From Bacteroidota bacterium (lineage in GTDB: Bacteria > Bacteroidota > Bacteroidia > JABDFU01), in contig JABDFG010000003.1 in NCBI GenBank assembly GCA_013286655.1, forward strand, positions 8,906 to 72,905: 64,000 nt of DNA. The letters are read 5' to 3'. Position 1 is the first letter of the stretch; each line of letters starts with the position of its first letter. The notes under the pieces are model-generated. The model did not search any database. It was not told the DNA's origin and saw nothing but the letters and a program-made list of their open reading frames with translations. The translations under genes were made by a program, and so were the position numbers. This document shows, one piece after another, positions 13,688 through 42,085 of this stretch.

Positions 13688-16600
13688 TTATAGTTCAATA
13701 CCCACCACCATCACATCATCAACCTGTTCATTGGTGCCCATCCATTCAGTCAATGTAGCCTGCAGTTTTTCTTTTTGCTCGTCTATAGGATTAGACTCAA
13801 TCTGCTGAAGTAGGTTTTTAAATCGTGATTTCATAAACTTCTTATCATTAGCTCCTCCGAACTGAGAATAATAACCATCCGAGCTTAGGTAAATATGTTG
13901 TCCGGGGATAATGGGAAATCGTTTAGTTTCAAATTTTCTTTCAACCGCTTCTATCACCCCGCCAATTGAAAAACGCTCGGAAGGTAACTCTTTAATTTTT
14001 CCATCTCCATCCGAAAGGAACAGGGGGCGGTAAGCTCCTGCGAAATACACTTCATTAAAATAAGTGTCCACCACACATAAGGCTATATCCATTCCATCTT
14101 TAACTTCCTGGACGTCTCCCCTAACTGCTTCTGAAAGCCTGCTATCTAATAATTCTAAAATTTCTGATGGATTTTCTATATGTTCATCTATAACGATATG
14201 GTTAAGCAAGTTATTCCCGATAATTGACATCAATGCCGCAGGTACTCCATGTCCAGTGCAATCTGCTACTACAATGAATTTTTTACTGCGTCTTTGAAAG
14301 CACCAGAAGAAATCGCCACTAACAATATCCCGTGGAAGAAAGAGTATAAATGATTTAGAAAATATTTCTGCCAATTGTCTGGAATTGGACATGAGTCCAA
14401 CCTGAATCCGCTTGGCATAATTAATGCTATCCGTAATACTTCTGTTTTTATCAACAAGTTCTTTGGTTCGTGAATCGACCCTATGTTCAAGTTCAGTCAA
14501 GGTATTGTCTCTCTCCTGCTGGACTCTTTTTAGTTCTGTTATGTCTTCGTGAGCCACAACAACCATTGGCAAATCACTTTCAAATTTCATCACTCTTAAG
14601 ACAAACCATCTTTGCTCATTGGGAGAATGACAAGGATATTCAAGATAAAATATGCTCTTTCTTTGATCCATTACTTCCTTTATTCCCTGTAATGCTTTCG
14701 CGGCAATTCCATCACCCTCTCCGGCTGATTTAATGCATACGTCAAAATAATTACTTCCCTCTCCTGTGCGCTGTAAAGCCGTTTCTCCATTTTGTAATGC
14801 AAATTGATTCCATGCCTCGTTCACCGCCACAATAGTTCCGGCTGCATTTATCACAGCGATATGAGAACTCAAGGAATGCAGAACCCCTCGGTTAAATTCC
14901 TCACTTTTTCGGAGCAACTGTTCCGTCCTTTTTCTTTCAGTTATGTCTCTGGAATGACATGCAGCTCCAACAACACCTTTATCCTCTTTGATAGGAGAAT
15001 ACGAAATCTCTGTCCACAGTTCAACTGGCGAGTCGAAGTGCTCAATTTCTGTAAAAACTTCCCCCACAAATGCCCTCCCATATAATTGCTTAAAGTGATT
15101 AAGCATTTCTATAGTGTAAGATGATGAAAGAACATTGCTTCCTTTTGAGATTGTTTTGCCAAAAGAAAGCTCGCCCATTATGTCAAATGGCTTATTTGAT
15201 GTAATTAAATTAAAATTTTTATCTACGCTCCACATTAAATCCTTTGTGTTATTGATCAAAGCATTCAAATTGTTTTCATCAAATTTTCGCTGGGTTTCCA
15301 TTTTTTTTATTTCGGAAATATCACTGAAATTTGATACCAAAGCATGTATTCCGGGTTCACGAAGCATATTGGTAATATTACCTTCGCACATAATCCAGTT
15401 GCCATTTTTATGCAAAAACCTTAGCTGAGCATAGAATGATTGACCTGGATTGAGCAGAATTTTATTCCTTTTCTCTAAATATCCTTCCATGTCCTCCGGA
15501 TGAATAATTTTGAATAGTGGAATACTTAGAAACTCCGCCGAAACATATCCGAGTATTTTTGTAATAGAAGGGCTTACATAAATTATTTTCCCTTCTTCAT
15601 TAGAAAGTATTTTTATGTCGCTGCTTTTTTCGATCAGGGAACGAAACAGCTTTTCATTTTGAGCTACCAGCTTTTCTGTTTCCTTTTGTATTTTCGCATT
15701 TGCAAACGTGTCAATGGTCAAAGAAATGTCCTCCGACATTTCTACAAGCAATTCAATTTCTTCTTTGGTGGCAAAATCGAGTTCGGCAGCATACAGGTTA
15801 AAGGTGCCAATAATAATTCCTGATTTTCTAATTGGTAATACCATGCAGGATCGGATACCATACTTTGAGGCAAATAACTTCCAGTTTTCCAATTGGGGGT
15901 CATTTTCTATATCATTGCAGATATAGTGCATACCCGTTTCTAAAACATGGCTTTGCGGACCTTTATTTTGAAGGGAAACTCTGGTAAATAATTTGATTTC
16001 TTCATCTGGTACACCACATTGATTAATAAGAATTATTTTTTTCTGCTCATTGTAAAACAGCCCTATCCACGCCATCTTTAATCTGCCGAACTCAATCGCT
16101 ATTGCGCATGAATTACCGAAAAGTTCTTTTTCACTTTTTATATGAACAATATTCTGATTGATCTGGTTAATAAAAGCGTACAGACGATTAGCTTTACTTA
16201 TTTTCTCCTCTGTTTCCCTGCGTTCCGTAATATCCTGTATAGTTCCATATAAACGAACGGGCTTCCTTCTTTTGTTGTACTCAAATTTCCATTCGGCATA
16301 ACCGTGTCTAATAATACCATCCGTGCGAATGAACCTGAAATTAAAGCCGGAATCAGTTAATGTATCAAAAGCTTCTTTTGTTTTCCTTTGTGAGGAAACT
16401 GCATCATCGGGATGAATAAATGATAACAAGGTTTCGATGGATTGCCGGTTTTGACCTAGGGGGATGCCATATATTCTGCACGCTTCATCAGACAATAGAA
16501 GAACTTTGGAGGAGAATACTAATTCCCAGCTTCCAAAATGAGCCACCTGTTGTGCCTTTGCAAGCTGTTTTTCACTTTGTGCAAGATCAAAAGCTGTTTT

Positions 16601-17008
16601 CTTCTTTTGTTTATTTTCTTTTGAATCCTTTAATGCTCGTAGTACTTTGGTGTTCAAAGTGAACAATCTGTCTTTTAATACATAATCAGTCAAACCATTC
16701 TTAATCAGCTCAATGGATTTTTCCTCCCCAATTGTTCCTGATACAAAAATAAATGGAGTATCGGGAGCTGTCTGTTCGCGTATTTTAAGGGCGGTAAGTC
16801 CGTCAAAGGATGGAAGAGAGTAGTCAGACAATATAACATCTGGTTCAAAATCTTTAAGAGCAATGCCGTAATCCCTCTCATTTTTAACAATTTCTGATGT
16901 AAAATTGATTCCTCCCATTTTTAATTCGTATTGCAGAAGCTCAATATCATTTGCGTCATGCTCTACAATTAAAATTTTGGTTTTGGTATTCAATGGGTTG
17001 TTTGTCAA
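13688..17008 (-). CDS. response-regulator receiver / PAS / GAF / PAS / SpoIIE-PP2C phosphatase multidomain protein
   Basis: N-terminal REC ([14 protein letters not shown]...[13 protein letters not shown]). Several PAS-like blocks and a GAF-like block. C-terminal PP2C/SpoIIE region ([11 protein letters not shown]...[20 protein letters not shown]...LSSDGY...[10 protein letters not shown]). Confidence 0.85.
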
Positions 17009-17439
17009 GGTGTTTGGTTAACGATCATCCAGAAAAGACCCAACTCGGTAATAACCGTCTGAAATTCAATAAAGTCGACTGGCTTTACAACGTAACTGTT
17101 TACACCAAGTTCATAACATTTTTTTATATCGGGGTCTTCCTTTGAAGAAGTGAGTACGACAACCGGGATTCCTTTGGTTCTTTCATCTGATTTTATTCTC
17201 TGAAGGACCTCAATGCCATTTATCTTGGGCATTTTTAGATCAAGAAGAATCAGCTTGGGCTTATTCTCTATTTGTCTTTCTGACCATTTTCCTTCGGCGA
17301 AAATGAAATCCAATGCCGCTGCACCATCTTTTATATGCAGAAGTTTGTCAGCTAAATTGTTCTTCTGTAACGCAGTGATAGTCATTTCAGCGTCGCTGGC
17401 GTTGTCTTCAACCAATAAAATTTGCACTTCTCTGTTCAT
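17005..17439 (-). CDS. stand-alone response-regulator receiver (CheY-like)
   Basis: [14 protein letters not shown]...[17 protein letters not shown]...PVVVLTSS...NSYVVKP. 4-nt ATGA overlap with the downstream PP2C gene. Confidence 0.9.
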
Positions 17440-17443
17440 GAAT

Positions 17444-18844
17444 TTAAGACTTAATCAATGTGAAATAAAATACTGCTCCTTCGTTTACTTTTCCTTCCGC
17501 CCATACTCTTCCGCCATGTTTGGTAATAATCCTTTGAACAATGGCCAACCCTACCCCGGTTCCCTCAAATTCATCTTCAGAATGAAGGCGCTGAAATACT
17601 CCAAAAAGTTTGTTTATATACCGCATGTCGAAACCGGCACCGTTATCCTTTATATAATAAATTATTTCATCGCCTTTTATTTCAGAGCCAATTTCAATAA
17701 TTGGTTTTTCTTTAAATCCGGAGTATTTAATAGCATTTGAAATAAGGTTTACCCAAACTTGTTTTATTGCAACGCTGTCTGCCTGAGCAGGGATTAGGGG
17801 TTGAATACGGAATTCAATTTTAGTGTGACCTTCTCCATTTCGAAATTCGTGACAGATATTCTCCACCATTTCATTCATCAGAATTTTGATCTTAACCAAT
17901 TCTTTGCGTCCAAGGCGCGAAAAGGTGAGAAGGTCATCAATTAGCTGCCCCATTTTTTTTGCATTGCCAATGATATTACCCATCAACCGCTTTGCTTCAG
18001 TATCCAGTAGGCTTTCATATTTATCTTTATGCATCTGCGCATATCCAAGTATTGCGCGGAGTGGAGCCCGTAAATCATGAGATACGGAATAGGAGAATGA
18101 TTCCAACTCTTTATTAACGGCTTCCAGTTGGGCCGTTCGGTCTATTTTCTCCTCGTTTTGAAAGGCCAATTCGTTATTTGCAATTATCAACTCCGCCGCT
18201 CTCTTTTCCTTCTCTTCGTTTTGAAAAGCAAGTTCTATGTTGGCAATGCCTAATTCTCCGGCCCTTCTTTCCTTTTCCTTATTTTGAAAGGCAAGTTCTT
18301 TATTTGCAATTTTTAATTCGGCAGCGCGTTTTTCTTTCTCAATATTCTGAAAAGCCAGTTCTTTATTAGCAATTATTAGTTCCGCCGCCCGTTTGCCTTT
18401 CTCTTCGTTTTGAAAGACCAATTCTATATTCGCCAGACCCAATTCAGCAGCTCGTTTTTCTTTCTCCTTATTTTGAAAACTAAGTTCTGTATTGGCAATG
18501 CTCAGCTCTGCAGCTCGTTTTTCCTTCCTTTGGTTTTCAATGGCTAGTTCTTTGTTGGCAATAATTAACTCAGCAGCACGTTCTTCTTTTTCTTCGTTTT
18601 GAAAGGCAAGTTCATGATTTGCAATGACTAACTCTGCAGCGCGTTTTTCTTTTTCCTTATTTTGAAACGCCAATTCTTTATTAGCTATGCTTAACTCGTT
18701 AGCACGTTTTTCTTTCTCCTCATTTTGAAACGCGAGTTCTTTATTGGCTATACTTAATTCTGCGGCTCGTTTCTCCTTCTCCTCATTCTGAAAAGCAAGC
18801 TCCTTATTGGCAAAAATTAATTCATCTGATTTCTTTTTGTCCAA
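17444..18844 (-). CDS. soluble histidine kinase whose entire N-terminal region is 11 tandem 21-aa coiled-coil repeats
   Basis: Residues 8-238 are 11 x EL(I/S)[18 protein letters not shown]. They run straight into HisKA ([19 protein letters not shown]) and HATPase_c (DNGAGFD...GTGVGLAIV). No TM, PAS, GAF or other sensor domain. TTG start. Confidence 0.85.
18131..18823 (-). repeat. 63-bp tandem repeat array, 11 units, in frame
   Basis: Repeated ttgaaa(a/g)gc(a/c)a(g/a)ttc...gc(a/c)at..ttaa(c/t)tc.gc.gc.cg.tt.tc words across lines 18121-18840. Units are diverged at the DNA level. Confidence 0.9.
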
Positions 18845-18993
18845 TTTATTTCAATGCATTAAAATGCTTTAAGTAAAGAACCTGTGCCGACTAAGGTATA
18901 TCTATAATATGGATAAAGCCTTATATTTCCAGTAATAAAGAATTATATAATTCACTCATTTGTGCCGATTTTATAAAATGCCTGTAAAATGGC

Positions 18994-21900
18994 TCACAAT
19001 GAAGCGGGAATGTAAATATCAATCCGAGTGCCCTTATTTAATTTACCTGTTGCGGTAATAACGCCTTTGTGGTTTTCAACAATTCGTTTACAAATAGCAA
19101 GTCCAATACCTGTACCTTTATATTTATCAAACTCGTGAAGGCGTTGGAATACTTCAAAAATCCGATCCTTATACTGTGGGTCGAAACCGATACCGTTGTC
19201 GCTAACAGTTAAGTGACAATAGTTGACTTCAGGTAAGAGATCTTTTATATTTAATATGCTTCCTGATTTAATTTCGCACTTTATCGTTATACGTGGAAAT
19301 CGTTTAGGATATGAAAACTTTAGAGAGTTGCTGATAAGATTTTGTATGATCTGACGGAACTGGAAGCGAATAATGTTTGCATTGCAAAGTCCATCGACTT
19401 TGATAGTTGCTTTTTTTTCTATCAAAGTTTCCTTAAAATCCGCTATAACTTCTTTAACAATTTCAGTGAGAGTTGTGTTTTCGAAATTATGTGCTCCATT
19501 CTTTACACGTGAATAAGCAAGTAAATCTTCAATGAGCATCTGCATTCTTTTAACCGTGTCCATCATTCTATTCAAATAATCCTTCCCTTTTTCTGATAAA
19601 TTTTCCTTTTCATCCCGGATTATAGAATCTGAAAAGTTTTTTATTTTACGTAAAGGTTCCTGCAAATCGTGGCTCGAAATAAAAGTGAATGTTTCCAATT
19701 CCTTATTCATTTTTTCCAGAAAAGTATTCTTTTCTTCAAGAGTTTTATAACTTTCATCCAATTCAGATGTTCGTTCATTGATAATATTTTCCAATCCCTT
19801 TTTTTCTGCTTTCCGTTTGCGTGTACTCTCTGTTATATCGGTAAAAGCAAGCAAAATCAATTGCTCGTTTTGAGATTTCTGTACAATTCGTTTTGCATTG
19901 AGCAACATTGTTTTCTTACCTATTCCGGGAAAAAAATGGGTAATTTCATAATCGTTGAAGTAATTATCTTTTTGAATAATACTTTCCAAAAGTTCGCGCA
20001 GACGTGGAATATCCCATTGGTGATTACCTAATTCATACAACAGATTTCCCTCCGTGTCTTTTTGGAGAACCATGAATTTTTTATAGAACGCTTTATTGGC
20101 TGATTTTATCCGAAGGTCTTTTCCAAGGATGAGAAAGGGCTCATGCATTGTCGCTGCAATGGCAATGGCAAAGTTATAAGTTTCCGTAAGTTGCTCGTTC
20201 CGTGTTTGTAATTCTTCATTTGTAGAAGTAAGCTCTTCATTAGTTGCTTCAATTTCTTCCTTGGAGGTTTCAAGTTCTTCATTCAGGCTCTGAAACTCTT
20301 CATTGGTTGAAACAATTTCTTCATTAGCAGCCTGCAATTCTTCGTAAGCTGTTTCCCTTGCTTCTATAATAGAATGCATTTCGGCATGCGCGCTATTCAA
20401 TTCTTCTGCCAGTTTTTTTATTTTCCGGTTTTTTTCTGTTGAATTATTATTTGAGTCTTTACCATTATGACTATAATCATCCGCAGGCTCCTGTATCGTA
20501 AAAACAATGAGGAGAATCGGCTCCTCCCATTCAATATCAAGAGGATGTACCTGTAAAGTTATTGTCCTCAATGTGGAATCAAAATTCATTTCAATATCCG
20601 ATTTCCTGACAGGCTTCTTTGTTTTAATAGCTTTGTGAATCACGGAACGCAATTCAAAAGCAAATTCAGGGCGTACCATTTTTAAAATATTCAAACTGGC
20701 ATTACCTGAAGAATGCCTTAGAAACAAAGATGTGGAGCCTCTGAATTTAAGAATTTCCATATCCTTATTAATTATGGCACAAGCCGGCACATAATTGGAG
20801 AGAAGAGTGGAATCGATAACATTATCGAGTTCTGTTGAATTAAAGTGTGTGTTTTTCGATGCAACCTTGATATTTTTTGGAGTAATAGCCGTCCGTGGAA
20901 AATGAGGCAGCAGTTCTGGCACCTTACGTAAACCTGCATTTTTTTTCTTGGAGAAAATTGCGAATCTATTATCTACACGTGAAAAAAGCTGAGAAGATGT
21001 TCCGACAGTTTCTGATTGCCCCATCATTAAATATTTCCCCTCATTCAAGGCAAAATAAAAAAGCGCCAGTGCTTTTTTCTGGGCAACCGGGTCAAAATAA
21101 ATAAGAAGATTTCGGCAACTGATTAAATCCAACCGTAAAAAAGGCGGATCACGCAGAACATTGTGCGGAGCAAACACACACATTTCCCTGATCTCTTTAA
21201 CTATTTTGTAGTGATTATTGGTCTTCACAAAAAAGCGCTTAAGACGTTCTTTGCTGACGGGCTTTACATCACTTTGCGAATATTCACCGATTCGGGCATC
21301 ATGTATAGCCTGGTCACTGAGATCAGTGGCGAAAATCTGTATGGGATTTTTTTTGCTTTTATTATCCTGCAATTCAATTATCAGCATAGCAATTGTATAG
21401 ACTTCCTCTCCTGTCGAACAAGCAGGTACCCATATTCGTATTGTTTCTTCGGCTGTTTTGCTTTTAAGAATTCTAGGAAGTATTGTTGTTCTTAAATACG
21501 GGAAAATTTCTTTATCCCTGAAAAATCTGGTTACATTAATAAGTAAGTCCTTGTAAAGTATATCGACCTCCTGACTCTTTTTTAATAACAACCTGGCATA
21601 TCCCTTTAATGTCTTTTCTCCGCATTGAAGCATCCTGTTTTGAATCCTTCTTTTAATGGTAGCTATTTTATACCTTCCGAAATCAACATTTATTTTTTTG
21701 TGCAAGATGTCCAGAACGGTCTTCAAAGCCGGATCACTATCTTCAATGGTCATGTCTTCCACCTCGTTTTTAATCTCTCGCCTCAAAAATCCACTTTTGC
21801 TAAAGCGTATAAATTCACGTGCAATTTCCTGTGGTGATAAAACAAAATCAACCACTCCCGATGCAATAGCAGATTGAGGCATGCTGTGTGCCTGCGCTGA

Positions 21901-22410
21901 ACCATCCTGAGCAAAAGTCATGCCTCCGGCGTCTTTAATTGCCTTTAACCCAATGGTGCCATCATGCAGATTACCTGATAGAATCACACCAATGACATTT
22001 TCTTTATGAGTTAGTGCCAACGAGGAAAAAAGGATATCAATGGAAATGGCATTTCCGTCTTTCGACCGAGGAATCAATTTTATATGACCGTCCATTACCG
22101 TAATTCCTTTATTATAAGGAATTACGTAAACATTATTTGGCTTAATAAGTTCCATATCATCTATCTCCTGAACGTCCATTTTGGTTATTTTCGATAAAAT
22201 GGAAGTGAGATAACTTTTATGATCCTTATTGAGGTGCTGTACAATAATATATGCCATTCCGGTATCATCCGACAAATTTTTCAATAAAGCTGAAACGGCT
22301 TCCAGCCCCCCAGTGGAGGCGCCAATGGCAACCACCGGAAAAGATTTTTTTTGGACCTTATAGGGCGCGTCAGATTGTTTTTTTTGAACAGATGATTTTT
22401 TTCTTGCCAC
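18994..22410 (-). CDS. CheB methylesterase - CheR methyltransferase - PAS - heptad coil - PAS - HisKA/HATPase fusion kinase
   Basis: CheB: FPVVAIGASTGGLEAVSALL. CheR: VTRFFRDKEIFPYL...IWVPACSTGEEVYTIAM...ISCRNLLIYF. Coil: ELQAANEEIVSTNEEFQSLNEELETSKEEIEATNEELTSTNEELQTRNEQL. HisKA: FTFISSHDLQEPLRKIKNF. HATPase: DNGIGFD...GTGIGLAICK. GTG start. Confidence 0.85.
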   Translation of the reverse strand: MARKKSSVQKKQSDAPYKVQKKSFPVVAIGASTGGLEAVSALLKNLSDDTGMAYIIVQHLNKDHKSYLTSILSKITKMDVQEIDDMELIKPNNVYVIPYNKGITVMDGHIKLIPRSKDGNAISIDILFSSLALTHKENVIGVILSGNLHDGTIGLKAIKDAGGMTFAQDGSAQAHSMPQSAIASGVVDFVLSPQEIAREFIRFSKSGFLRREIKNEVEDMTIEDSDPALKTVLDILHKKINVDFGRYKIATIKRRIQNRMLQCGEKTLKGYARLLLKKSQEVDILYKDLLINVTRFFRDKEIFPYLRTTILPRILKSKTAEETIRIWVPACSTGEEVYTIAMLIIELQDNKSKKNPIQIFATDLSDQAIHDARIGEYSQSDVKPVSKERLKRFFVKTNNHYKIVKEIREMCVFAPHNVLRDPPFLRLDLISCRNLLIYFDPVAQKKALALFYFALNEGKYLMMGQSETVGTSSQLFSRVDNRFAIFSKKKNAGLRKVPELLPHFPRTAITPKNIKVASKNTHFNSTELDNVIDSTLLSNYVPACAIINKDMEILKFRGSTSLFLRHSSGNASLNILKMVRPEFAFELRSVIHKAIKTKKPVRKSDIEMNFDSTLRTITLQVHPLDIEWEEPILLIVFTIQEPADDYSHNGKDSNNNSTEKNRKIKKLAEELNSAHAEMHSIIEARETAYEELQAANEEIVSTNEEFQSLNEELETSKEEIEATNEELTSTNEELQTRNEQLTETYNFAIAIAATMHEPFLILGKDLRIKSANKAFYKKFMVLQKDTEGNLLYELGNHQWDIPRLRELLESIIQKDNYFNDYEITHFFPGIGKKTMLLNAKRIVQKSQNEQLILLAFTDITESTRKRKAEKKGLENIINERTSELDESYKTLEEKNTFLEKMNKELETFTFISSHDLQEPLRKIKNFSDSIIRDEKENLSEKGKDYLNRMMDTVKRMQMLIEDLLAYSRVKNGAHNFENTTLTEIVKEVIADFKETLIEKKATIKVDGLCNANIIRFQFRQIIQNLISNSLKFSYPKRFPRITIKCEIKSGSILNIKDLLPEVNYCHLTVSDNGIGFDPQYKDRIFEVFQRLHEFDKYKGTGIGLAICKRIVENHKGVITATGKLNKGTRIDIYIPASL

Positions 22411-22442
22411 AGGCCTGGGTTTTATCGCTTAATGAATAATAC

Positions 22443-22907
22443 TTATACCTCTTGCAAACTGAGAATAAATTTATCTCGTGAAGGCTGTTCAAATTTTTTC
22501 CCCACAATCTTAGTAAGAATATAATTGAGCGTTTTTCTAAGTTCTGTCAAATCTGTCTTTCGAATGTAATAGTATGCTCCGATTTTGTAGAGAATGTCGG
22601 CAATCTGGTCGTCAAGAGAAGTGGAATATATTACTACCGGAAGTTTTTGAAGTTTTTTATTGCTTTTAATTTCTATAAGACATTCATGACCGTTTTTTCG
22701 GGGCATGTTGAGGTCGAGAAAAAGAACATCCGGAAGTTGTTCTGAATTTGCAGAAAGATAATTTATCAGTCGTTCACCATCATTAACAGATTTAAAATGA
22801 GTAGCGATTGGTAATTCCTCTAACGCTTCCTTAAAGAAAAAGCGATCATCTTTGTCATCATCTGCAAGAAGTATATTAAGAATTATATGCTTTTCTTTAG
22901 GTTTCAT
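22443..22907 (-). CDS. stand-alone response-regulator receiver (paralog of 41154 and 42086)
   Basis: ILLADDDKDDRFFFKEAL...VLFLDLNMPRKNGHECLIEIKSNKKLQKLPVVIYSTS, plus the C-terminal motif QPSRDKFILSLQ. Confidence 0.9.
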   Translation of the reverse strand: MKPKEKHIILNILLADDDKDDRFFFKEALEELPIATHFKSVNDGERLINYLSANSEQLPDVLFLDLNMPRKNGHECLIEIKSNKKLQKLPVVIYSTSLDDQIADILYKIGAYYYIRKTDLTELRKTLNYILTKIVGKKFEQPSRDKFILSLQEV

Positions 22908-23143: not shown

Positions 23144-24514
23144 TTAAAAGGCAATTGCTGCTTCTACCATCCAACCTTCGAATTGCCCTCCTGAGAGTAT
23201 ATTTGTATTTAGATAATTCATATATATCTGGTTAACATATTCTGCTTTCAACATTAAATTTTTGGTAAGAAACCAGCCGACGGAACCTGCTTCGCGTTGG
23301 ATTGTTATGTTTTGGGCAATACCTTGCATTGCTGCTGTAACAGTGTTATATCGGAAACCTACCCAAAAGTTTTGTTTTTCTCTTGGGAATCTGTAAATAA
23401 GATCGGCTGCTAATTGAGTGGCCTGACGTGAGGTGGTTTCTATAATTGTTCTACCGGAAGCTATTTCGTATGTCCCAAAAAACTCCAAGCCTTTGTATTT
23501 CAGGAAAAGATTGCCCATTGTGGTCATTACTTCTTCACTAAAACCCGGATTGTACCTTCCTGAGAAAGGGTTGTAATCATTGGCATCATTGAGTGTCGTA
23601 TTACCCGCTACAGTAGCATTGGACATGACATTGAAATAATGTGATCCGGTACGGTCTCCTCCGAACAGGGTATTACTGTTAGCACTTGCATCAGAATAGA
23701 ATGAACCACTTATTCTGACGCGAAAATCCCTATTTACTTGCCTGTCATAGCCTATCTTGCCATGAAAAGCGGGTGCGTAGCGATTTGTTTTTCCTGTTGC
23801 TGAATCAATTTTTGTTGCAGAGAGAACTGTTGGATCGAGCTCTCCATTTGTTATGCCTCCCATAATAAAAAGTCCGCAATTCGAATGATAGTATATTTCA
23901 CCACCAATTTCGGTGGCAAATTCGTCCATAATGTAGTTATCCATAAAAGGATTAAACAACGTACTTCCTCCGTCTGATCTGCGAAAATGCTGGTCACCGT
24001 AATCCACATCGTATTGACCTATTTTTATGGTGATATTCTTCATTAATTTATCTATAAATTGATTATGAAGGATTGTCAATTTATCGATCTGAACATATCC
24101 CCCCTTTACCCAGGTATCCTCGTGGTGTCTGGATGCAAGGTAAGCCGTCAGGTTTACCCTTATGCCATCGGATAATTGTGCGTCAATATTGAGGTTAGCC
24201 ATTGCCAGATCAAATCCATCTGTAAGGGGGACAAGACTGTTAATATTGCCAATGACTCCGGTTTTTGACATTACCGGTACTGCAGTGTTCTGATCTCGTA
24301 AGGCCTGAAAATCCTGTTCAAAATTCCCTCCGACTTTTACTTTCATTTTTGTGAAGGGAGTGCTGTCTTGTTTGGTTGTTTCAAACATATTTACGCCATC
24401 ACTGTTGTTTGGACGAAAGTATTGCATTTCCTGGTTTTGTGCGTTTGATATAAAACCTCCAACTACCATTATTGCTGTCGTGAACTGCCTGATTTGTTTA
24501 AATGGTTTTTTCAT
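23144..24514 (-). CDS. putative outer-membrane beta-barrel (porin-like) protein
   Basis: Signal peptide, alternating amphipathic beta-strand pattern, aromatic C-terminus (...EAAIAF). The family is not recognised. Confidence 0.45.
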   Translation of the reverse strand: MKKPFKQIRQFTTAIMVVGGFISNAQNQEMQYFRPNNSDGVNMFETTKQDSTPFTKMKVKVGGNFEQDFQALRDQNTAVPVMSKTGVIGNINSLVPLTDGFDLAMANLNIDAQLSDGIRVNLTAYLASRHHEDTWVKGGYVQIDKLTILHNQFIDKLMKNITIKIGQYDVDYGDQHFRRSDGGSTLFNPFMDNYIMDEFATEIGGEIYYHSNCGLFIMGGITNGELDPTVLSATKIDSATGKTNRYAPAFHGKIGYDRQVNRDFRVRISGSFYSDASANSNTLFGGDRTGSHYFNVMSNATVAGNTTLNDANDYNPFSGRYNPGFSEEVMTTMGNLFLKYKGLEFFGTYEIASGRTIIETTSRQATQLAADLIYRFPREKQNFWVGFRYNTVTAAMQGIAQNITIQREAGSVGWFLTKNLMLKAEYVNQIYMNYLNTNILSGGQFEGWMVEAAIAF

Positions 24515-26814: not shown

Positions 26815-27195
26815 ATGAATCCCATTAGAACGAGAACTGCCGAATATTCTTTGCTTGCTGATAACATTATTCTTTGCAGGATACTTGAAAATGTCAATAT
26901 ACAACCAGCTGATATTAAGGAAAACCTCGGAGTAACCCTTCAACTGGCTGACGGAAAGCCTTATGTAGCTTTAGTAGATGGAAGAGGTGAGAGTACTATT
27001 ACCAGGGAAGCAAGGGAGCTTGCTGCGAAACCGGAATCTTACCTATTACAATTAGCCTCGGCCATAGTTGTCAACACAACCAGTAGTCGTCTCATTGTAA
27101 ATTTCATCATCAAATTCTATAAACCGCCTGTGCCGACCAAACTCTTTAGTGATATAGATTTAGCCTTGATTTGGCTTAAAACACGCCTAAAGTAG
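26815..27195 (+). CDS. hypothetical protein, possibly a STAS/SpoIIAA-like fold
   Basis: 126-aa soluble ORF with its own intergenic region. The fold guess rests only on size and the alternating hydrophobic pattern. Confidence 0.3.
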   Translation: MNPIRTRTAEYSLLADNIILCRILENVNIQPADIKENLGVTLQLADGKPYVALVDGRGESTITREARELAAKPESYLLQLASAIVVNTTSSRLIVNFIIKFYKPPVPTKLFSDIDLALIWLKTRLK

Positions 27196-27261: not shown

Positions 27262-28533
27262 TCATAAGATCGTATAAAGCAAATAAACATTGAGCAGGAG
27301 AATAATTGCTGAAACGCTCCAGGCCACTATTTGAAGTGGCTTTTTGTTTGCAAATGGTCCCATCTGGTCTTTATTACTGGTGAAAATGACCAGCGGAATG
27401 ACCGCGAAACTCAATTGCATGGATAGAATAACCTGGCTTAGCACCAACAAATTGGCTGTTCCATGTTCTCCATAAAGCAGGGTGACTATAAATGCCGGTA
27501 CCACAGCGATCATTCGTGTGATAAGCCTGCGTAACCAGGGTTTTAAGCGGATATTCAGAAATCCTTCCATTACGATTTGTCCGGCAAGTGTACCTGTTAA
27601 AGTAGAACTTTGTCCGGAGGCAAGCAGTGCAACTGCAAACAGGACACTTGCTAAAGTGGCGCCCAAAAGGGGCGTCAGTAACTTGTGCGCATCCGTAATA
27701 GTGGCCACTTCCTGGTGGCCGCTTGTATGGAAACTTGCAGAGGCTACGATCAAAATCGCTGCGTTGATGAAAAATGCAAACATCAGTGCGACTACACTGT
27801 CGATATTGGCAAACCGGAGGGCTGTTTTTTTCCCTTCCTGTGTTCTTGGGTAATCCCGTGTTTGTATAATACTTGAATGCAGGTACAAGTTATGAGGCAT
27901 CACGGTGGCGCCAAGGATGCCGATAGAAATATAGAGCATCGAAGGGTTGTTGATAATTTCAGGTTTGGGTAACAGACCGTCTAAGATGGGGAACAATTGA
28001 GGGTGGGATGCGATTATCTCAAAGGTAAAAGTGCCGACGATAATAAGGATGAGAGCCGCCACAATGCTTTCAATGAAACGGAAGCCTTTGTATTGAAAAA
28101 ACAAAATGATCAGCACGTCCAGGGAAGTGAATGCTACGCCCGCTATCAGTGGAAGACCGAACAAGAGGTTCAGTGCGATTGCAGATCCGATCACCTCTGC
28201 AAGATCGCAGGCTGCAATGGCAATCTCGCAAAGTACCCACAGGCAAAAACTGGTAATGGGAGAATAGTGATCTCTGCATGCCTGTGCAAGGTCCCGCTCA
28301 GTAGCTATTCCGAGTTTTAAAGCAAGGTGTTGCAGCAGGATGGCGAAGAGATTGGAAATAAATATTACGGACAATAAGGTATATCCGAATTTAGAACCAC
28401 CGGCTATATCTGTGGCCCAGTTTCCCGGATCCATATATCCGGCGGCAATCATCAGGCCTGGTCCGGAAAAAGCCAGGAACTTTTTCCAAAAACTTCCTTT
28501 CCAGGGAACCTTTACGATCGGGAAATTGTTCAT
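27262..28533 (-). CDS. mntH: Nramp-family divalent metal (Mn2+/Fe2+):H+ symporter
   Basis: GPGLMIAAGYMDPGNWATDIAGGSKFGY and VMPHNLYLHS signatures with ~11 TM helices. The ORF opens at 28569, but ATG 28533 (MNNFPIV) is the more likely start. Confidence 0.9.
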   Translation of the reverse strand: MNNFPIVKVPWKGSFWKKFLAFSGPGLMIAAGYMDPGNWATDIAGGSKFGYTLLSVIFISNLFAILLQHLALKLGIATERDLAQACRDHYSPITSFCLWVLCEIAIAACDLAEVIGSAIALNLLFGLPLIAGVAFTSLDVLIILFFQYKGFRFIESIVAALILIIVGTFTFEIIASHPQLFPILDGLLPKPEIINNPSMLYISIGILGATVMPHNLYLHSSIIQTRDYPRTQEGKKTALRFANIDSVVALMFAFFINAAILIVASASFHTSGHQEVATITDAHKLLTPLLGATLASVLFAVALLASGQSSTLTGTLAGQIVMEGFLNIRLKPWLRRLITRMIAVVPAFIVTLLYGEHGTANLLVLSQVILSMQLSFAVIPLVIFTSNKDQMGPFANKKPLQIVAWSVSAIILLLNVYLLYTIL

Positions 28534-28570
28534 AAGGTGTAAACGTATTAAAATAATATGACATAGCAAA

Positions 28571-28619: not shown

Positions 28620-28678
28620 TTTTTGGGTCGTTCTAAGTTTATATTATAAATTTGAGCAGCCTCTTCCAGGCAAATTAT

Positions 28679-30688
28679 ATGGCACACACTCTTTCCGAAG
28701 AAAATTATCTTAAGGTAATCTATAACCTGGGAAAACAGGGGAACGAGAAGATCAGTCCTACTGCTATAGCTCAGGCTCTTACGAATAACCCCGCCTCTGT
28801 GATCGATATGCTTAAAAAGCTGGGAGATAAAAAACTGTTACATTATGAAAAGAGCAGGGGAGTGAAACTTACGGATAAGGGGAAAAAGACCGCTCTTTCG
28901 ATCATTCGCAATCATCGGTTATGGGAGGTGTTTTTGTTTGAAAACCTGGCGTATACCTGGGACGAGGTTCATGCTATTGCAGAACAGCTGGAACATGTTC
29001 ATCATGCCGAGTTGGCCGATAGGCTGGATAAATTTCTGGGCTTTCCTCCCTACGATCCCCATGGCGACCCAATTCCTAAATCGAATGGGGAAATGCCCAG
29101 CTTATCTAGTTTCACACTACTGGATGTGGATTCGGGCAAAATCTGCAAAGTGGTTGGTGTCAGGGATACCTCCGTTTCTTTTTTAAAATACCTGCAAAAA
29201 TTAAACATCGGAATAGGAACATCCATCAGAATGGTTGACAAAATAGAATTTGATGGATCGATGAACATACATATCGAAAAGGGTACTCCGGTTTCTGTCT
29301 CGAAAAAATTTGCGGAAAGTTTACTCGTGAAGTTTTGTTTGCTATTGTCACTCGGTTGTTTATTCTTTGGCGGCCCTGCTGTAAATGCCCAAATCATTAC
29401 AACGATTGCCGGAGATAGTGTTCAGGGGTATAACGGAGATAACATTCTGGCCAATCAGGCAGAACTGGCCAGTCCTCAAAGCCTGGCTACTGATACTTCG
29501 GGCGATATATACATTGCGGATTTTGATAATAACAGAATTCGGAAAATAACAAAAAGTACAGGTTTATTAACTACTGTTGCCGGAACAGGAGTGGGCGGCT
29601 ATTCGGGGGATGGGGGCCCGGCGGTCGCGGCTGAATTAAATTCCCCCGTTGCGTTGGCAATAGACCTGTCAGGAAATTTATATATTTCCGATTTGAGTAA
29701 TAATCGAATTCGCAAGGTGGATGCTGGTTCGGGCATTATAACTACCGTTGCCGGGAATGGCTTGTTTGGGTATAGTGGAGATCGGGGTTTGGCTACTGAT
29801 GCTACATTTAGAAGTCCTTATGGCATTTCGCTGGATTCATACGGAAATCTGTTTATAGCGGATAATGAGAACAATGTGATCCGTAAGGTGACGGCTGGTA
29901 CCGGAAAAATAACAACGGTAGCCGGAGATAGTATCGCAGGCTATAACGGGGATGACTCCGCAGCCATTGTTTCTCAATTAAATTATCCAACGGGTGTTGT
30001 TTCAGACGCTTTTGGAAATATATACATAGCAGACTGGGGGAATAACCGTATTCGCAGAGTTGATGCGATAACGGGTATTATAAGCACTGTAGCAGGAAAT
30101 GGTTCTGCGGGTTATAGCGGAGACAGCTCTGCTGCCCTTTCAGCTCAATTAAACATGCCCTACGCAGTTGCCTTGGACAAAAACAATAATTTATACATTA
30201 TAGATAATATCAATAATGTTATTCGTAAAGTCATAAACGCCTCAGGAATAATAATCACCATAGCGGGAAATGGCACATCGGGTTATAGCGGAGATGATCT
30301 CCCGGCAACCTTGGCTCAATTAAATCTTCCTTCTGGTATAGCGTTTGACCCCGCCGGGAATTTATACATTGCAGATGCGGGTAATAACCGTGTCCGGGAA
30401 GTTAACAATATCGTATCAAGCCTGAAAGAATTATCGGCCGGTACCAGGGACGTTGGCATTTTTCCAAATCCCTGTGGGGATTATTTTATTGTTTCGCTCG
30501 CGCCCGGCTTATCGGGCGAGCATCCGATTTTGGAGGTATTTGATATCAACGGCAAGTCCATACAAAGACAACTGTTACAACAGGACAAAATGATTATTGA
30601 TACGAGCCATCTTGGGAATGGTTTCTATTCACTTCTCATCACGACCGGTGAAGCGGTATCCGTCAAAAGATTAGTCATTGTCAGGTAA
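28679..30688 (+). CDS. single open frame joining a DtxR/MntR-family metalloregulator (to nt 29326) to a signal-peptide-bearing six-bladed NHL-repeat T9SS cargo protein (from GTG 29327)
   Basis: N-terminal part: EENYLKVIYNL..., IIRNHRLWEVFL, DPHGDPIP, and a FeoA/SH3-like end ...VSVSKKFAESLLV. Then VKFCLLLSLGCLFFGGPAVNAQ (signal-peptide-like). Then 6 x ITTVAG.G..GYSGD...A.L..P.G.A.D..GNLYIAD..NNRIRKV. C-terminal end: IFPNPCGDYFIV...GFYSLLI...RLVIVR. No stop codon separates the two parts. Confidence 0.7.
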   Translation: MAHTLSEENYLKVIYNLGKQGNEKISPTAIAQALTNNPASVIDMLKKLGDKKLLHYEKSRGVKLTDKGKKTALSIIRNHRLWEVFLFENLAYTWDEVHAIAEQLEHVHHAELADRLDKFLGFPPYDPHGDPIPKSNGEMPSLSSFTLLDVDSGKICKVVGVRDTSVSFLKYLQKLNIGIGTSIRMVDKIEFDGSMNIHIEKGTPVSVSKKFAESLLVKFCLLLSLGCLFFGGPAVNAQIITTIAGDSVQGYNGDNILANQAELASPQSLATDTSGDIYIADFDNNRIRKITKSTGLLTTVAGTGVGGYSGDGGPAVAAELNSPVALAIDLSGNLYISDLSNNRIRKVDAGSGIITTVAGNGLFGYSGDRGLATDATFRSPYGISLDSYGNLFIADNENNVIRKVTAGTGKITTVAGDSIAGYNGDDSAAIVSQLNYPTGVVSDAFGNIYIADWGNNRIRRVDAITGIISTVAGNGSAGYSGDSSAALSAQLNMPYAVALDKNNNLYIIDNINNVIRKVINASGIIITIAGNGTSGYSGDDLPATLAQLNLPSGIAFDPAGNLYIADAGNNRVREVNNIVSSLKELSAGTRDVGIFPNPCGDYFIVSLAPGLSGEHPILEVFDINGKSIQRQLLQQDKMIIDTSHLGNGFYSLLITTGEAVSVKRLVIVR

Positions 30689-31709: not shown

Positions 31710-31912
31710 GTGTTGTTTTGTATTTTTTTTATCTCTTTCATCATATGGCTGAATGCCTTTCCAATAACAATGGAGTATTTTTTATCTATAAATGTCTCCG
31801 GGCTCCTGGTTCTTTTATTTAAGATGGTTAAATAAAAGTTCGTATCCTCGTCGATGTCCAACGATACGGTATATAGCTGGAGGATGTTTTTAAGTTTTGT
31901 TGTATTTTTCAT
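31706..31912 (-). CDS. hypothetical small protein
   Basis: 68-aa ORF translationally coupled (4-nt overlaps) to both neighbouring genes. Confidence 0.4.
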   Translation of the reverse strand: MKNTTKLKNILQLYTVSLDIDEDTNFYLTILNKRTRSPETFIDKKYSIVIGKAFSHMMKEIKKIQNNT

Positions 31913-32367
31913 TCAATTTTAATGGAGTCTTCTGTTAATTCATCCATTTGCTTATGAATTCTTCCGGTTGAATTAAAATGCTCGTAAACATTCGTACAGT
32001 GAATGTTGGAAATTTCATTTTTGCCGCCCATTATCGGCAGTTTCAAAAAAGAAAAGACCTCGTCTTCCTTCAGCTGTTTCCCATCTTGTTCGAGTTCTTC
32101 AATTAACTCGGGTAAAAATATTTCATAATATTGTTCTGCAGACAGTCTGTTTTTTAAAAAGTCATTGGAATAATTGGAGAGGTGTTCCATGCTGCCAGTG
32201 CAGGTAGAAAGAAAATAAAGTTTATGTGACGGGTCTTTCAATACTAAATCTCCCATTTTAGTTATAACCATAATTTCCTTGTCTTCTCCTATTAACCATT
32301 TCCAGGGACTAAGTATCTCCTCATGGGAAAGGTGAGAGCTGTGAATGATGAACTTTAATATATTCAA
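31909..32367 (-). CDS. DUF1851 / Tdi1-like (T6SS immunity-type) domain protein
   Basis: WKWLIGEDKEIMVITKMGDLVLKD...LYFLSTCTGSMEHLSNYSNDFL...FSFLKLPIMGGKNEISNI fits my memory of the DUF1851 pattern (GD.fl...v..ld...g....y.f.P.l.lGG). Confidence 0.5.
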   Translation of the reverse strand: MNILKFIIHSSHLSHEEILSPWKWLIGEDKEIMVITKMGDLVLKDPSHKLYFLSTCTGSMEHLSNYSNDFLKNRLSAEQYYEIFLPELIEELEQDGKQLKEDEVFSFLKLPIMGGKNEISNIHCTNVYEHFNSTGRIHKQMDELTEDSIKIE

Positions 32368-37076: not shown

Positions 37077-38216
37077 TTAACAGGGCAATGCAAAACAAAA
37101 TGTAGCACCTTTACCTACTTCCGCTTCTGCATATATCCTTCCTCCATGTTTGTTTATGATACGTTGCGCAATCGCCAAACCTACTCCTGTTCCTTCAAAT
37201 TCTTCATCTGTATGTAAACGCTGAAAAACACCAAATAATTTGTCCGCATACTTCATGTCAAATCCTTCGCCGTTATCTTTTATCATATAGGTGACTTGAT
37301 GATTTTTCCTTTCGGATGTTATTTCAATCAGGGAATTCTTCTTTTTGGAAGAATATTTTATACCATTTGAAATCAGATTGATTGCGACTTGCTTGATCAG
37401 AGCGTAATCCCCTTTGACCGGATCTAATGTATTTACTTTTATTTCTGCCTTATGATTCGTTGTGTTTTTTAAATCTGTTAGTATTTCCTCAATTAGGAGA
37501 TTCATGTCAATGTCTGTTTCCTGAATAGGTTTTTTTCCCAGTCTTGCAAAAGTTAACAAGTCATCAATCAGGTTGTTCATCTTTATGGCATTATCCTGAA
37601 CGGCTGATAATACTCTTTTCCCTTCCTTATCAAAAAGCGGGCTAAAATCCTCTTCCAGTATCCTTGTATATCCATCTATGGCGCGTAAGGGAGCCCTCAG
37701 ATCATGTGATACAGAATAAGAAAAGGCTTCCAGCTCCTTATTTACTGCTTCCAACTGTTGCGTACGTTGCTCAATAACAGCCTGTTGTTCCATGATCTTT
37801 GTGATATTAATGAAAAAAGATATCAGGTAATTCTCTCCGTTCATTTCCATCAGCTCAATGGATGATACGGTATGAACTGTTGTCCCGTCTTTTGCGATGC
37901 ATCTAACATAATCATTTTGTAGCCTGCCTTTTTCTTGTATGATGTAGCCCACTCTGACGGATTCTTCCCTATCAAGGATTCCTATTTCTACAGATGTCCG
38001 GCCGATGATATCCGATTCAGCATAGCCGAAAGTTTCTAAAAATTTCTTATTGACTCTTACATAGGTTCTTTTTCCCGGAGCGGTAGTTGTCATGCTCATG
38101 CAAACGGGACTGTTGTTGAATAAGGTTAAAAGTCCCGCTCTGCTTTCCTTGAAAAGCTTCCTGGCCGTATCCAGGTTTTCAACAGTAATCGTATCAGAAA
38201 ATAAGTCCATCGGCAA
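37077..38216 (-). CDS. PAS-domain sensor histidine kinase
   Basis: PAS block, then [28 protein letters not shown] (HisKA) and DNGEGFD...[10 protein letters not shown] (HATPase_c). The kinase core is paralogous to 17444..18844. Confidence 0.85.
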   Translation of the reverse strand: MPMDLFSDTITVENLDTARKLFKESRAGLLTLFNNSPVCMSMTTTAPGKRTYVRVNKKFLETFGYAESDIIGRTSVEIGILDREESVRVGYIIQEKGRLQNDYVRCIAKDGTTVHTVSSIELMEMNGENYLISFFINITKIMEQQAVIEQRTQQLEAVNKELEAFSYSVSHDLRAPLRAIDGYTRILEEDFSPLFDKEGKRVLSAVQDNAIKMNNLIDDLLTFARLGKKPIQETDIDMNLLIEEILTDLKNTTNHKAEIKVNTLDPVKGDYALIKQVAINLISNGIKYSSKKKNSLIEITSERKNHQVTYMIKDNGEGFDMKYADKLFGVFQRLHTDEEFEGTGVGLAIAQRIINKHGGRIYAEAEVGKGATFCFALPC

Positions 38217-39999: not shown

Positions 40000-41136
40000 C
40001 TAATTTGCCGGGATATAAATATCAAAGGTTGCTCCTTTTTTTAGTTCGCTCGTAGCGATGATGATGCCGTTGTGATTTTCTACTATTTTCTTAACGATGG
40101 CTAGCCCGATTCCTGTACCTGCATATACGTCTTTGTTGTGAAGTTTTTGGAATACTTCAAAAATTCGCTCGCTGAAATGAGGTTCAAATCCGATGCCGTT
40201 GTCCTGAACAGTGATGTGACAATAATTTTTTTCCGGTGAAAATTTTTTATTATTTAATTTACTTCCTTTTACAATTCTGCTTTTTATTATTATGTGTGAT
40301 GGCACATCAGGTTGTGAAAATTTGAGCGCGTTGCTTATCAAATTGTACATGAGCTGGCGAAATTGAAAAACAATAATGTTGGCAGAGCAGAGCTGATCGG
40401 CTTCGATGCTTGCGTGTTTTTCAAAAATGGTATCTTTTAATTCGGCTGTGACCTCTTCAATAATTATTTTCAGTTCGGTTTTTTCAAATTTGAGTTCGGT
40501 AGTATTGATACGGGAGAATGCAAGTAAGTCGTCGATGAGTTGTTGCATTCTGCCGGCCGCTAATTGCATCCGTTGAAAATTGTATTTGCCATTGTCAGAT
40601 AGATTCTTATTCTCATTTTCGAGTATTATCGTGACAAAGGTTTGTATTTTACGAAGAGGTTCCTGCAAATCGTGGCTTGATACGTACGTAAATGCTAATA
40701 GCTCTTTGTTGGCAATAATTAACTCTGCCGCTCGTTTTTCTTTCTCTTCATTTTGAAAGGCGAGTTCTTTGTTGGCAATGATTAACTCTGCCGCTCGTTT
40801 TTCTTTCTCTTCATTTTGGAAGGCGAGTTCTTTGTTAGCGACAATTAATTCGGCTGCCCGTTTTTCTTTCTCTTCATTTTGAAAGGCTAGTTCTTTGTTG
40901 GCAATGATAAGTTCTGCCGCCCGTTCTTCTTTCTCTGTTACCTGTTTCTCCAGTTCTGTGTTGGCAATAATGAATTCGGCTGCCCGTTTTTCTTTCTCGT
41001 GGTTTTGGAAAACGAGTTCTTTATTGGCAATGACTAATTCTGCTATTAGTTTCCCCTTCTCTTCTTTTTCAACAGCAAGTTCCCTGCGAACAGTGCTTAG
41101 CTCGTGTCTGTCCAATTTAGTTGTATCCGTCATCAT
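40000..41136 (-). CDS. soluble histidine kinase with an N-terminal array of 21-aa coiled-coil repeats (second copy of this architecture)
   Basis: Five clean repeats plus two degenerate ones of EL(I/V)(I/V)[17 protein letters not shown]. They run directly into HisKA (FTYVSSHDLQEPLRKIQTF) and HATPase_c (DNGIGFE...GTGIGLAIVK). No sensor domain. The kinase core is paralogous to the CheB/CheR kinase. Confidence 0.85.
   Translation of the reverse strand: MMTDTTKLDRHELSTVRRELAVEKEEKGKLIAELVIANKELVFQNHEKEKRAAEFIIANTELEKQVTEKEERAAELIIANKELAFQNEEKEKRAAELIVANKELAFQNEEKEKRAAELIIANKELAFQNEEKEKRAAELIIANKELLAFTYVSSHDLQEPLRKIQTFVTIILENENKNLSDNGKYNFQRMQLAAGRMQQLIDDLLAFSRINTTELKFEKTELKIIIEEVTAELKDTIFEKHASIEADQLCSANIIVFQFRQLMYNLISNALKFSQPDVPSHIIIKSRIVKGSKLNNKKFSPEKNYCHITVQDNGIGFEPHFSERIFEVFQKLHNKDVYAGTGIGLAIVKKIVENHNGIIIATSELKKGATFDIYIPAN
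40726..41103 (-). repeat. 63-bp tandem repeat array, about 6 units, with two adjacent units differing at 2 of 63 nt
   Basis: The units starting at ~40704 and ~40767 (ctttgttggcaat(a/g)attaactctgccgctcgtttttctttctcttcattttg(a/g)aaggcgagtt) are almost identical. Confidence 0.9.
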
Positions 41137-41153
41137 TTATTGTTTTAACAGAC

Positions 41154-41618: not shown

Positions 41619-41621
41619 TGG

Positions 41622-42080: not shown

Positions 42081-42085
42081 CAGAT

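Follow-up and report, generated by a model that had tools for sequence, protein, structure and literature searches.

A 64,000-nt stretch of the genome of a Bacteroidota bacterium (contig JABDFG010000003.1, positions 8,906 to 72,905; hereafter the window, in whose coordinates all positions are given) raises the question of what the chemotaxis-type enzymes CheB and CheR act upon where no chemotaxis receptor is encoded. Five open reading frames (ORFs) run head-to-tail on the minus strand, spaced by 32, 149 and 4 nt and then joined by one 4-nt overlap (Table 1). They encode a single-domain receiver (REC1), CheB and CheR domains fused to a histidine kinase, a second histidine kinase preceded by a repetitive coil, another single-domain receiver (REC2), and a protein that begins with a receiver (REC3) and ends in a PP2C phosphatase. 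The order, coordinates, gaps and domains of the five genes given in an initial annotation of this sequence are reproduced by ORF calling and Pfam searches; the 4-nt overlap is present and reads TTGA, with TTG as the start codon of the PP2C gene over the stop of REC2, and not ATGA. The same annotation took the five genes for a single wired phosphorelay and left the target of methylation unexplained. Our analysis departs from it on both points. The methyl acceptor is likely to be a Glu-rich helix built into the same polypeptide as CheB and CheR, and the locus probably consists of two independent two-component modules lying side by side: a system of the MAC1 class (22907-18994) and a separate cassette (18844-13688).

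The CheB/CheR kinase is composed of CheB, CheR, a flexible linker, a PAS-like domain, a 98-residue coil, a PAS domain and a HisKA/HATPase_c kinase, in this order. No transmembrane-like segment is found in any of the five proteins, and the CheB/CheR kinase is predicted to be cytoplasmic and soluble. Its catalytic residues, the loss of which had been named as a possible refutation, are intact on alignment. The CheB triad S32/H59/D150 aligns to S164/H190/D286 of Salmonella CheB (1A2O; 1CHD was also aligned), and the CheR motifs FFRD, ACSTGEE, ATD and CRNLLIYF align to the solved CheR structures 1AF7, 5FTW and 5XLY. Among 23 relatives no change occurs at H59 and D150 and hardly any at S32, and the CheR motifs are invariant or nearly so; H914 and the N and G boxes of the kinase are invariant across the relatives as well. 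The region between the enzymes and the kinase was modelled with AlphaFold2 on residues 495-885, which gives the coil, then the second PAS domain, then a helix leading into the kinase. The first PAS-like domain has no Pfam model and is recognised by its topology; the best Foldseek matches of the modelled region are the tandem-PAS sensors WalK, DosP, NifL and FixL, and the equivalent of the second PAS domain in one relative (locus L109) is assigned to PAS_10 (5.9e-32). The architecture is widespread: at least 7,893 full-length homologues share it, many of them named 'CheB/CheR fusion protein' by JGI, and the PAS-plus-coil unit (residues 500-745) matches 7,159 of 1.84 billion cluster representatives at E <= 1e-10.

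The coil carries eight heptad-spaced Glu-Glu or Glu-Gln pairs, which we propose as sites of methylation and deamidation. The strict pattern E-E-x-x-[AST]-[AST] begins at residues 690, 697, 711, 718 and 725, that is, at five of the eight pairs. Only six strict motifs occur in the entire 1138-residue protein, all of them within residues 669-730, and the five in the coil segment compare with an expectation of 0.38, a count of five being reached in none of 10,000 shuffles. At the nucleotide level the heptads appear as 21-nt repeats at 20210-20343 in the tandem repeat scan (TRF). Across 201 family members the run comprises 5-10 pairs, with a median of 7, and follows the consensus E-E-[LIF]-x-[STA]-[TSA]-N. 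The heptads (residues 690-741) contain 48% invariant columns, against 22-25% in the CheB, CheR and kinase domains, 2% in the linker (482-524) and 20% in the whole protein. Because no part of the CheB/CheR kinase is more conserved than this Glu-Glu heptad segment, the methyl acceptor of CheB and CheR is likely to be the Glu-rich helix of the same chain. Pfam holds no family for the coil, and the only matches it returned there are spurious coiled-coil hits.

These features place the protein in a known class. The MAC proteins (MAC standing for methyl-accepting coiled coil) were reportedly defined by Wuichet and Zhulin in 2010, and are said to have been proposed at that time as forms intermediate between the machinery of chemotaxis and ordinary two-component systems. 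They act as receptor and kinase at once; in MAC1 proteins CheB and CheR domains are built in, and MAC2 proteins are associated with separate CheB and CheR domains (bioRxiv 10.1101/2022.05.07.491037). A profile of MAC1 is part of MiST3 (PMC6943060). The defining features were taken from secondary descriptions, which is a caution on the assignment, and tested directly on the window protein: CheB and CheR stand in one chain, the kinase is in the same chain as the receptor-like part, and the conserved coil bears Glu/Gln pairs resembling methylation sites. The CheB/CheR kinase is therefore most likely an ordinary member of the MAC1 class, 57-81% identical to many of its members, and the fit to MAC1 together with the conserved heptads of MCP type (that is, of methyl-accepting chemotaxis proteins) offers a target for the methylation that had seemed to lack one. 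The window protein shares with other MAC1 proteins the union of CheB, CheR, Glu-pair coil and HisKA/HATPase kinase, the genomes or loci lacking MCP, CheA and CheW, and an adjoining single-domain receiver. In itself it shows no difference from them; unusual is the cassette of a repeat kinase, a receiver and a REC-PP2C protein directly downstream on the same strand, an arrangement not seen in 88 other CheB/CheR loci. The locus thus adds no new principle. It is a clean, soluble, membrane-free example of MAC1, with intact CheB and CheR, eight heptads and a clearly assignable partner receiver, and its numbered glutamates make the protein a convenient test case for MAC methylation.

Domain scans of the 53 window ORFs of at least 90 residues revealed no MCPsignal, CheW or CheA-specific (Hpt/P3/P5) domains, in agreement with the initial annotation, which had listed no MCP, CheA or CheW in these 64 kb. 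The canonical chemosensory arrangement, in which MCP, CheW and CheA are encoded with CheB and CheR, is thus absent within the window, and CheB lacks its canonical N-terminal receiver, the domain starting at residue 27 with no REC ahead of it. A phmmer query with the Tsr hairpin had no match in 167 loci, those fetched around CheB/CheR proteins included. Under the MAC1 reading none of the three partners would be needed, since receptor, adaptation enzymes and kinase all reside in one polypeptide. The host was correctly seen as a Bacteroidota with a type IX secretion system (T9SS): a T9SS sorting domain (Por_Secre_tail or CHU_C) is present in six window proteins, and the relatives of the CheB/CheR kinase belong nearly all to Bacteroidota.

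The immediate partner of the MAC1 protein appears to be REC1, encoded directly upstream (Pfam REC, 3.7e-16). Its closest relatives in the PDB are RcpA and Rcp1, receivers of the type that works with phytochrome kinases, and it retains D16-D18 as the acidic pocket, D65 as the phospho-acceptor, S95/T96 and K117. We assembled 80 loci anchored on CheB/CheR proteins, one genome per species, together with contigs of relatives at 81, 80, 77, 68 and 67% identity, and mapped domains by phmmer in these and in a second set of 80 metagenomic loci chosen for the repeat kinase. In 19 loci the CheB/CheR kinase has a REC1-type gene directly upstream, in 10 it has one downstream, and in another subfamily a receiver is fused to the C-terminus of the kinase. 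In all five of the relatives at 81 to 67% identity REC1 is kept beside the CheB/CheR kinase without the downstream genes of the window; in the 81% relative the kinase gene is followed by that of a convergent PAS kinase.

The downstream genes form a cassette of their own. The repeat kinase has no sensor domain. Its HisKA (8e-16) and HATPase_c (7e-22) domains form a core of a subtype that we call HK2, LvrA-like (NCBIfam LvrA C-terminus, 1.3e-79), as distinct from the bacteriophytochrome-like HK1 core of the MAC1 protein. Ahead of the HisKA helix stand eleven in-register 21-residue repeats, detected by TRF as a 63-nt unit in 10.8 copies at 18146-18823. The repeat is nearly identical across distant Bacteroidota, ranges from 3 to 24 copies among 93 proteins, and is always situated directly before the HisKA helix or between a PAS or GAF domain and HisKA. 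It belongs to no Pfam family (a PH_SLA1 match at residues 22-54 is taken as spurious), and a text search of the literature for the repeat and heptad peptides returned nothing relevant. REC2 (Pfam 2.4e-19) is related to bacteriophytochrome response regulators (5IC5, 9e-44; 5BRJ, 2.5e-39), and a gene of its type follows a repeat-HK2 kinase in 51 loci. The product of the last gene has the architecture REC3-PAS-GAF-PAS-PAS-PAS-PP2C; its phosphatase domain is closest to SiaA (NCBIfam SiaA, 1.8e-52; 6K4E, 3.5e-37), and the metal-binding motifs GDF, DCxGHG, SxDG and DD align with those of SiaA in 6K4E.

The succession of repeat-HK2 kinase, REC2 and a gene starting with REC3 recurs in about 36 of the 80 loci anchored on the repeat kinase, in the order found in the window. 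In 18 loci the third gene encodes a protein ending in a histidine kinase (two of them truncated at a contig end), and in 10 it is receiver-only (nine REC3-type and one REC2-type; one truncated at a contig end). It ends in PP2C only in L090, where the match to the repeat kinase is 90% identical and the architecture is that of the window. The window cassette is a rare PP2C-output variant of a common repeat-kinase cassette, and a widespread cassette with an uncharacterised 21-residue repeat is thereby flagged.

Co-conservation in relatives, the lack of which had been named as a refutation of a single circuit, separates the two parts of the locus. The five genes are not one conserved unit, because the PP2C gene is absent from all 88 other loci anchored on a CheB/CheR protein, including relatives at 77-81% identity; conversely, CheB/CheR lies within 10 kb of the repeat kinase in only 3 of the 80 repeat-kinase loci. 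Kinase and receiver subtypes also pair within the modules: HK1-type kinases adjoin REC1-type receivers 40 times and REC2-type once, and HK2-type kinases adjoin REC2-type 63 times and REC1-type 5 times, counts that stem from related sequences and anchored sampling and are not independent observations. Within the window, the core of the MAC1 kinase shares 58% identity with that of the kinase at 40003-41136 and 35% with that of its neighbour at 17444-18844, which is in turn 58% identical to the HK2-type core of a PAS kinase at 37080-38216 (minus strand). The 149-nt gap between the modules (18845-18993) has 28% G+C, typical of an intergenic promoter region. A sigma-70 promoter scan gave hits at chance level (32 sites against 30.7 expected), and the Bacteroidota -7 motif TAnnTTTG is absent both from this gap and from the region upstream of REC1. 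The single wired phosphorelay of the initial annotation finds no support in these comparisons, and the adjacency of the two modules is probably fortuitous. The apparent five-gene circuit, read as a juxtaposition, is a guard against over-reading operon-like spacing.

The case for one integrated phosphorelay, in which both kinases feed the three receivers and PP2C serves as the common output of a single operon, is made by the close same-strand spacing itself and by the lack of any terminator-like site on the minus strand within the 149-nt gap. It draws some further support from L109, where a kinase-less CheB-CheR-PAS-coil protein lies 1.4 kb upstream of a repeat-HK2/REC2/REC3-kinase cassette on the same strand. 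Against it stand the loss of the adjacency in the relatives that are 81, 80 and 77% identical, the absence of PP2C from CheB/CheR loci and the near absence of CheB/CheR around the cassette, the pairing of subtypes inside rather than across the modules, and the promoter-like base composition of the gap, and we hold this arrangement to be unlikely. The adjacency might have a function short of full integration, with the MAC1 enzymes also modifying the eleven-repeat coil or the MAC1 kinase cross-phosphorylating the downstream receivers, which seems quite unlikely. If true, a methylation-adapted sensor would drive a Ser/Thr-phosphatase output, and the 21-residue repeat would represent a second kind of signalling coil, undescribed as yet and either methyl-accepting or length-coded.

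The substrate of the enzymes could also lie outside their own chain. CheB and CheR might act in trans on the repeat coils of two kinases, the neighbouring one and its paralogue at 40003-41136, which would make the repeat MAC2-like. The repeat is very strongly conserved across genera and holds a QNEE element. It is found inside the CheB/CheR proteins of L058, L076 and L163, and in two Flavobacterium loci (L012 and L051) a stand-alone CheR and a CheB without receiver are encoded between hybrid kinases, the sole coil of the CHASE3-GAF kinase of L012 being the 21-residue repeat. Yet neither EExx[AST][AST] nor the relaxed [EQ][EQ]xx[ASTG][ASTG] occurs in the repeat even once, so that we rejected it as an MCP-like methylation array, and in most repeat-kinase loci neither CheB nor CheR is encoded in the vicinity. 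CheB/CheR is nearby in about two of the 23 loci with full 10-kb upstream flanks, by our estimate not clearly above chance where genomes hold several paralogues. Action in trans therefore strikes us as rather improbable. Only 64 kb of the genome are in view, and canonical MCPs encoded elsewhere might be the substrates, the fusion merely coupling the enzymes to a kinase. The high conservation of the methylation-site heptads would then be left unexplained, MCP, CheA and CheW are lacking in the fetched CheB/CheR loci, as probed with the Tsr hairpin, and likewise in the window, and some proteome clusters rich in MAC1 or MAC2 components seemingly have no other chemotaxis systems (bioRxiv 10.1101/2022.05.07.491037), which makes distant MCPs a very unlikely target. 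The notion that the CheB and CheR domains are catalytically dead remnants, kept as structural or sensor modules only, is the least credible and borders on the implausible, nothing specific speaking for it and the CheB triad and all SAM and substrate motifs of CheR being preserved in relatives that are 57-77% identical.

Several points weigh against a self-modifying MAC1 protein standing next to an independent cassette. The coil is predicted by AlphaFold2 as one long helix and not as an MCP-like hairpin, and its recognition by CheR and CheB may differ from that of MCPs. The methylation of the coil by its own protein is read from sequence, and according to the 2022 preprint no MAC protein had been studied by experiment (bioRxiv 10.1101/2022.05.07.491037). 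The tight same-strand spacing of the five genes, with the terminator-free gap, leaves room for co-transcription and cross-talk. The few loci that bring the 21-residue repeat together with CheB and CheR, in cis (L058, L076, L163) or with stand-alone enzymes (L012, L051), also mean that the repeat could be a second substrate of these enzymes.

The working of the two modules, as we infer it for methylation, for the influence of methylation on the kinase and for the direction in which phosphate is passed, would be as follows. The MAC1 protein would be a soluble, presumably dimeric sensor kinase, whose two PAS domains flank the helix of Glu pairs and sense a cytoplasmic signal, which the coil would pass on to the kinase. 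Attached at the N-terminus through the disordered linker of about 40 residues, CheR and CheB would respectively methylate and demethylate or deamidate the Glu pairs of the coil, either in the same protein or in its dimer partner, with CheB deamidating the Gln at 740. Modification would alter the charge and stability of the coil and thereby reset the gain or set-point of the C-terminal kinase, and the kinase would phosphorylate the Rcp-like REC1 encoded directly upstream. REC1 may or may not feed back on the receiver-less CheB, which is speculation. In the second module, the sensor-less kinase with its 11 repeats of 21 residues would pass phosphate to REC2, to the receiver domain of the PP2C protein, or to both, and the output would be a SiaA-like PP2C Ser/Thr phosphatase in place of the usual histidine kinase.

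The parallels with canonical MCP-CheW-CheA adaptation, as in Tsr and Tar of E. coli, extend to the catalytic residues, to the alternation of Glu and Gln, which suggests deamidation, and to the tethering of the enzymes near their substrate, achieved in the MAC1 protein by fusion and not by a C-terminal pentapeptide. The MAC1 protein differs in having no MCP hairpin, CheW or CheA, and carries a HisKA-type dimeric kinase in the same chain; its coil is predicted to be one continuous helix instead of an antiparallel hairpin and has eight tandem sites in a row, its CheB has no receiver domain, and its output is an Rcp-like receiver and not a flagellar CheY. Both modules resemble the pairs formed by Cph1 and Rcp1 and by bacteriophytochromes: a kinase gene is accompanied by a gene for a single-domain receiver, the kinase cores share the H-box SHDLxxPLR, and the best solved relatives of the cores and stand-alone receivers are bacteriophytochrome kinases on the one hand and Rcp1, RcpA, RcpB, 5IC5 and 5BRJ on the other. 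Unlike those pairs, the window kinases lack a phytochrome photosensory module, their inputs being PAS domains and the putative methyl-accepting coil in the first module and the repeat coil only in the second.

The second module has further relatives. Against the Leptospira models, the repeat-kinase core reaches 268 bits with LvrA, and the receiver that opens the PP2C protein 131 bits with the N-terminus of LvrB, both far below the family cut-offs of 1200 and 500 bits. The third cassette gene of most relatives encodes a REC-kinase protein, as does LvrB; the repeat coil and the PP2C output are features of the window and not of LvrA and LvrB. With partner-switching systems of the SiaABCD and RsbU type the module shares a PP2C domain closest to SiaA with all metal-binding motifs, and with RsbY and RssB-like phosphatases a receiver among the N-terminal regulatory domains. 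It differs from the former in that no gene for a SiaC or STAS substrate or for a SiaB or RsbW kinase lies beside the PP2C gene.

A possible partner-switching target had been seen in a STAS-like ORF at 26815-27195 (plus strand), which encodes a DUF7793 protein of 126 residues. The resemblance is weakly supported, at the level of the fold: the AlphaFold2 model (pLDDT 82) best matches the SpoIIAA-like fold of 2Q3L (E 4.7e-4, TM 0.53) and, more weakly, STAS anti-sigma antagonists (TM 0.5-0.58), which makes a STAS-like fold plausible. A functional link to the PP2C gene is not supported. The ORF lies 9.8 kb from that gene on the other strand, behind five other ORFs, among which only two have a confident Pfam assignment (YceI and alcohol dehydrogenase), and it has no counterpart in L090, where the orthologous PP2C gene is present. 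The protein has only six homologues among 5.8 billion proteins at E <= 1e-5 and no invariant Ser or Thr. Scans of the window detected no STAS, DUF1987 or RsbW-type kinase gene (stand-alone HATPase_c_2); the sole HATPase_c_2 match is below threshold and falls inside the repeat histidine kinase. The PP2C domain has its metal-binding motifs intact, with neither a substrate nor a partner Ser kinase encoded alongside, and the DUF7793 protein was rejected as its substrate on the grounds that beyond its fold it shows neither a conserved phospho-site nor synteny.

Table 1. Genes of the two modules and features of their products (coordinates in the 64-kb window; residues numbered in the respective protein)
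Feature	Position	Strand	Residues	Remarks
REC1 receiver gene	22443..22907	(-)	154 aa	module A, gene 1
CheB/CheR kinase gene	18994..22410	(-)	1138 aa	module A, gene 2
CheB methylesterase/deamidase domain	21814..22332	(-)	aa 27-199	Pfam CheB_methylest 1.1e-51; without a receiver of its own
CheR_N and CheR, SAM-dependent methyltransferase	20968..21726	(-)	aa 229-481	Pfam CheR 3.8e-52, CheR_N 3.4e-08
Linker, predicted disordered		(-)	aa ~482-524	AlphaFold2 pLDDT ~35; 2% invariant columns
First PAS-like domain	20491..20838	(-)	aa 525-640	PAS-like topology in AlphaFold2 model
Single continuous helix, proposed methyl-accepting coiled coil	20152..20445	(-)	aa 656-753	AlphaFold2 pLDDT 78-94
Eight heptad-spaced Glu-Glu/Glu-Gln pairs, proposed methylation/deamidation sites	20188..20343	(-)	aa 690-741	
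Second PAS domain	19837..20136	(-)	aa 759-858	Pfam PAS_4 at 757-863; AlphaFold2
HisKA (H914) and HATPase_c, core subtype HK1 (bacteriophytochrome-like)	19003..19674	(-)		HisKA 2.7e-10, HATPase_c 1.4e-21
Repeat kinase gene	17444..18844	(-)	466 aa	module B, gene 1
Eleven in-register 21-aa repeats	18131..18823	(-)	aa 8-238	run straight into the HisKA helix
REC2 receiver gene	17005..17439	(-)	144 aa	module B, gene 2
REC3-...-PP2C gene	13688..17008	(-)	1106 aa	module B, gene 3
SpoIIE/PP2C phosphatase domain	13694..14278	(-)	aa 911-1105	Pfam SpoIIE 4.7e-19

Some observations on related proteins and loci were made in the course of the comparison. Kinase-less proteins of about 980 residues with the order CheB-CheR-PAS-coil-PAS occur in L035, L039, L048, L052, L072, L109 and L162. 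In several of these loci such a protein adjoins a separate multi-PAS kinase and, on the opposite strand, a CheB-homologous ORF of about 340 residues, the length of which fits REC-CheB, yet no REC domain was detected in it. In L012 (776-16434, Flavobacterium sandaracinum) and L051 (618-16351, Flavobacterium sp. XS2P12) the stand-alone enzymes belong to a cluster of seven genes, with Pfam confirmation for three genes of L012 and the same phmmer map in L051. The first four genes encode PAS-repeat-HK-REC, REC, the stand-alone CheR and the stand-alone REC-less CheB; the fifth and sixth a CHASE3-GAF-repeat-HK-REC hybrid (three REC stretches by Pfam) and REC-PAS-HK-REC; and the seventh a MAC1 hybrid, CheB-CheR-PAS-coil-PAS-HK-REC. 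The cluster may be MAC2-like, with the 21-residue repeat as the sole coil on which the separate CheR and CheB could act.

The window holds a second signalling cluster at 40003-42616 (minus strand), where three tandem REC1-type receivers (42089-42616, 41625-42080 and 41157-41618) precede a kinase. The receivers are 52-58% identical to each other and to the receiver at 22443-22907, and the kinase (378 residues, 40003-41136) combines the same 21-residue repeats with an HK1-type core. The same order, with a repeat-HK1 kinase behind one to four REC1-type genes, is also found in L131, L139, L154 and L159. Directly upstream of the REC1 gene, across a gap of 239 nt, lies an ORF of 456 residues (23144-24514, minus strand) with no Pfam or NCBIfam match; this gene also stands ahead of the receiver in the Logan contig L167.

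Two further ORFs of the window deserve mention. The one at 31912-32367 (minus strand) carries the C-terminal domain of the type VI secretion (T6SS) immunity protein Tdi1 (1.6e-10), with no T6SS genes visible nearby. Another, of 678 residues (28652-30685, plus strand), joins a DtxR-type iron-dependent repressor with its DNA-binding and dimerisation domains to FeoA, an NHL beta-propeller and a T9SS sorting domain, and is divergent from an Nramp metal transporter gene (27262-28569, minus strand). It mixes a cytoplasmic regulator with the signal of a secreted protein, and could be either a genuine fusion or the product of a sequencing or frame artefact that merged two genes.

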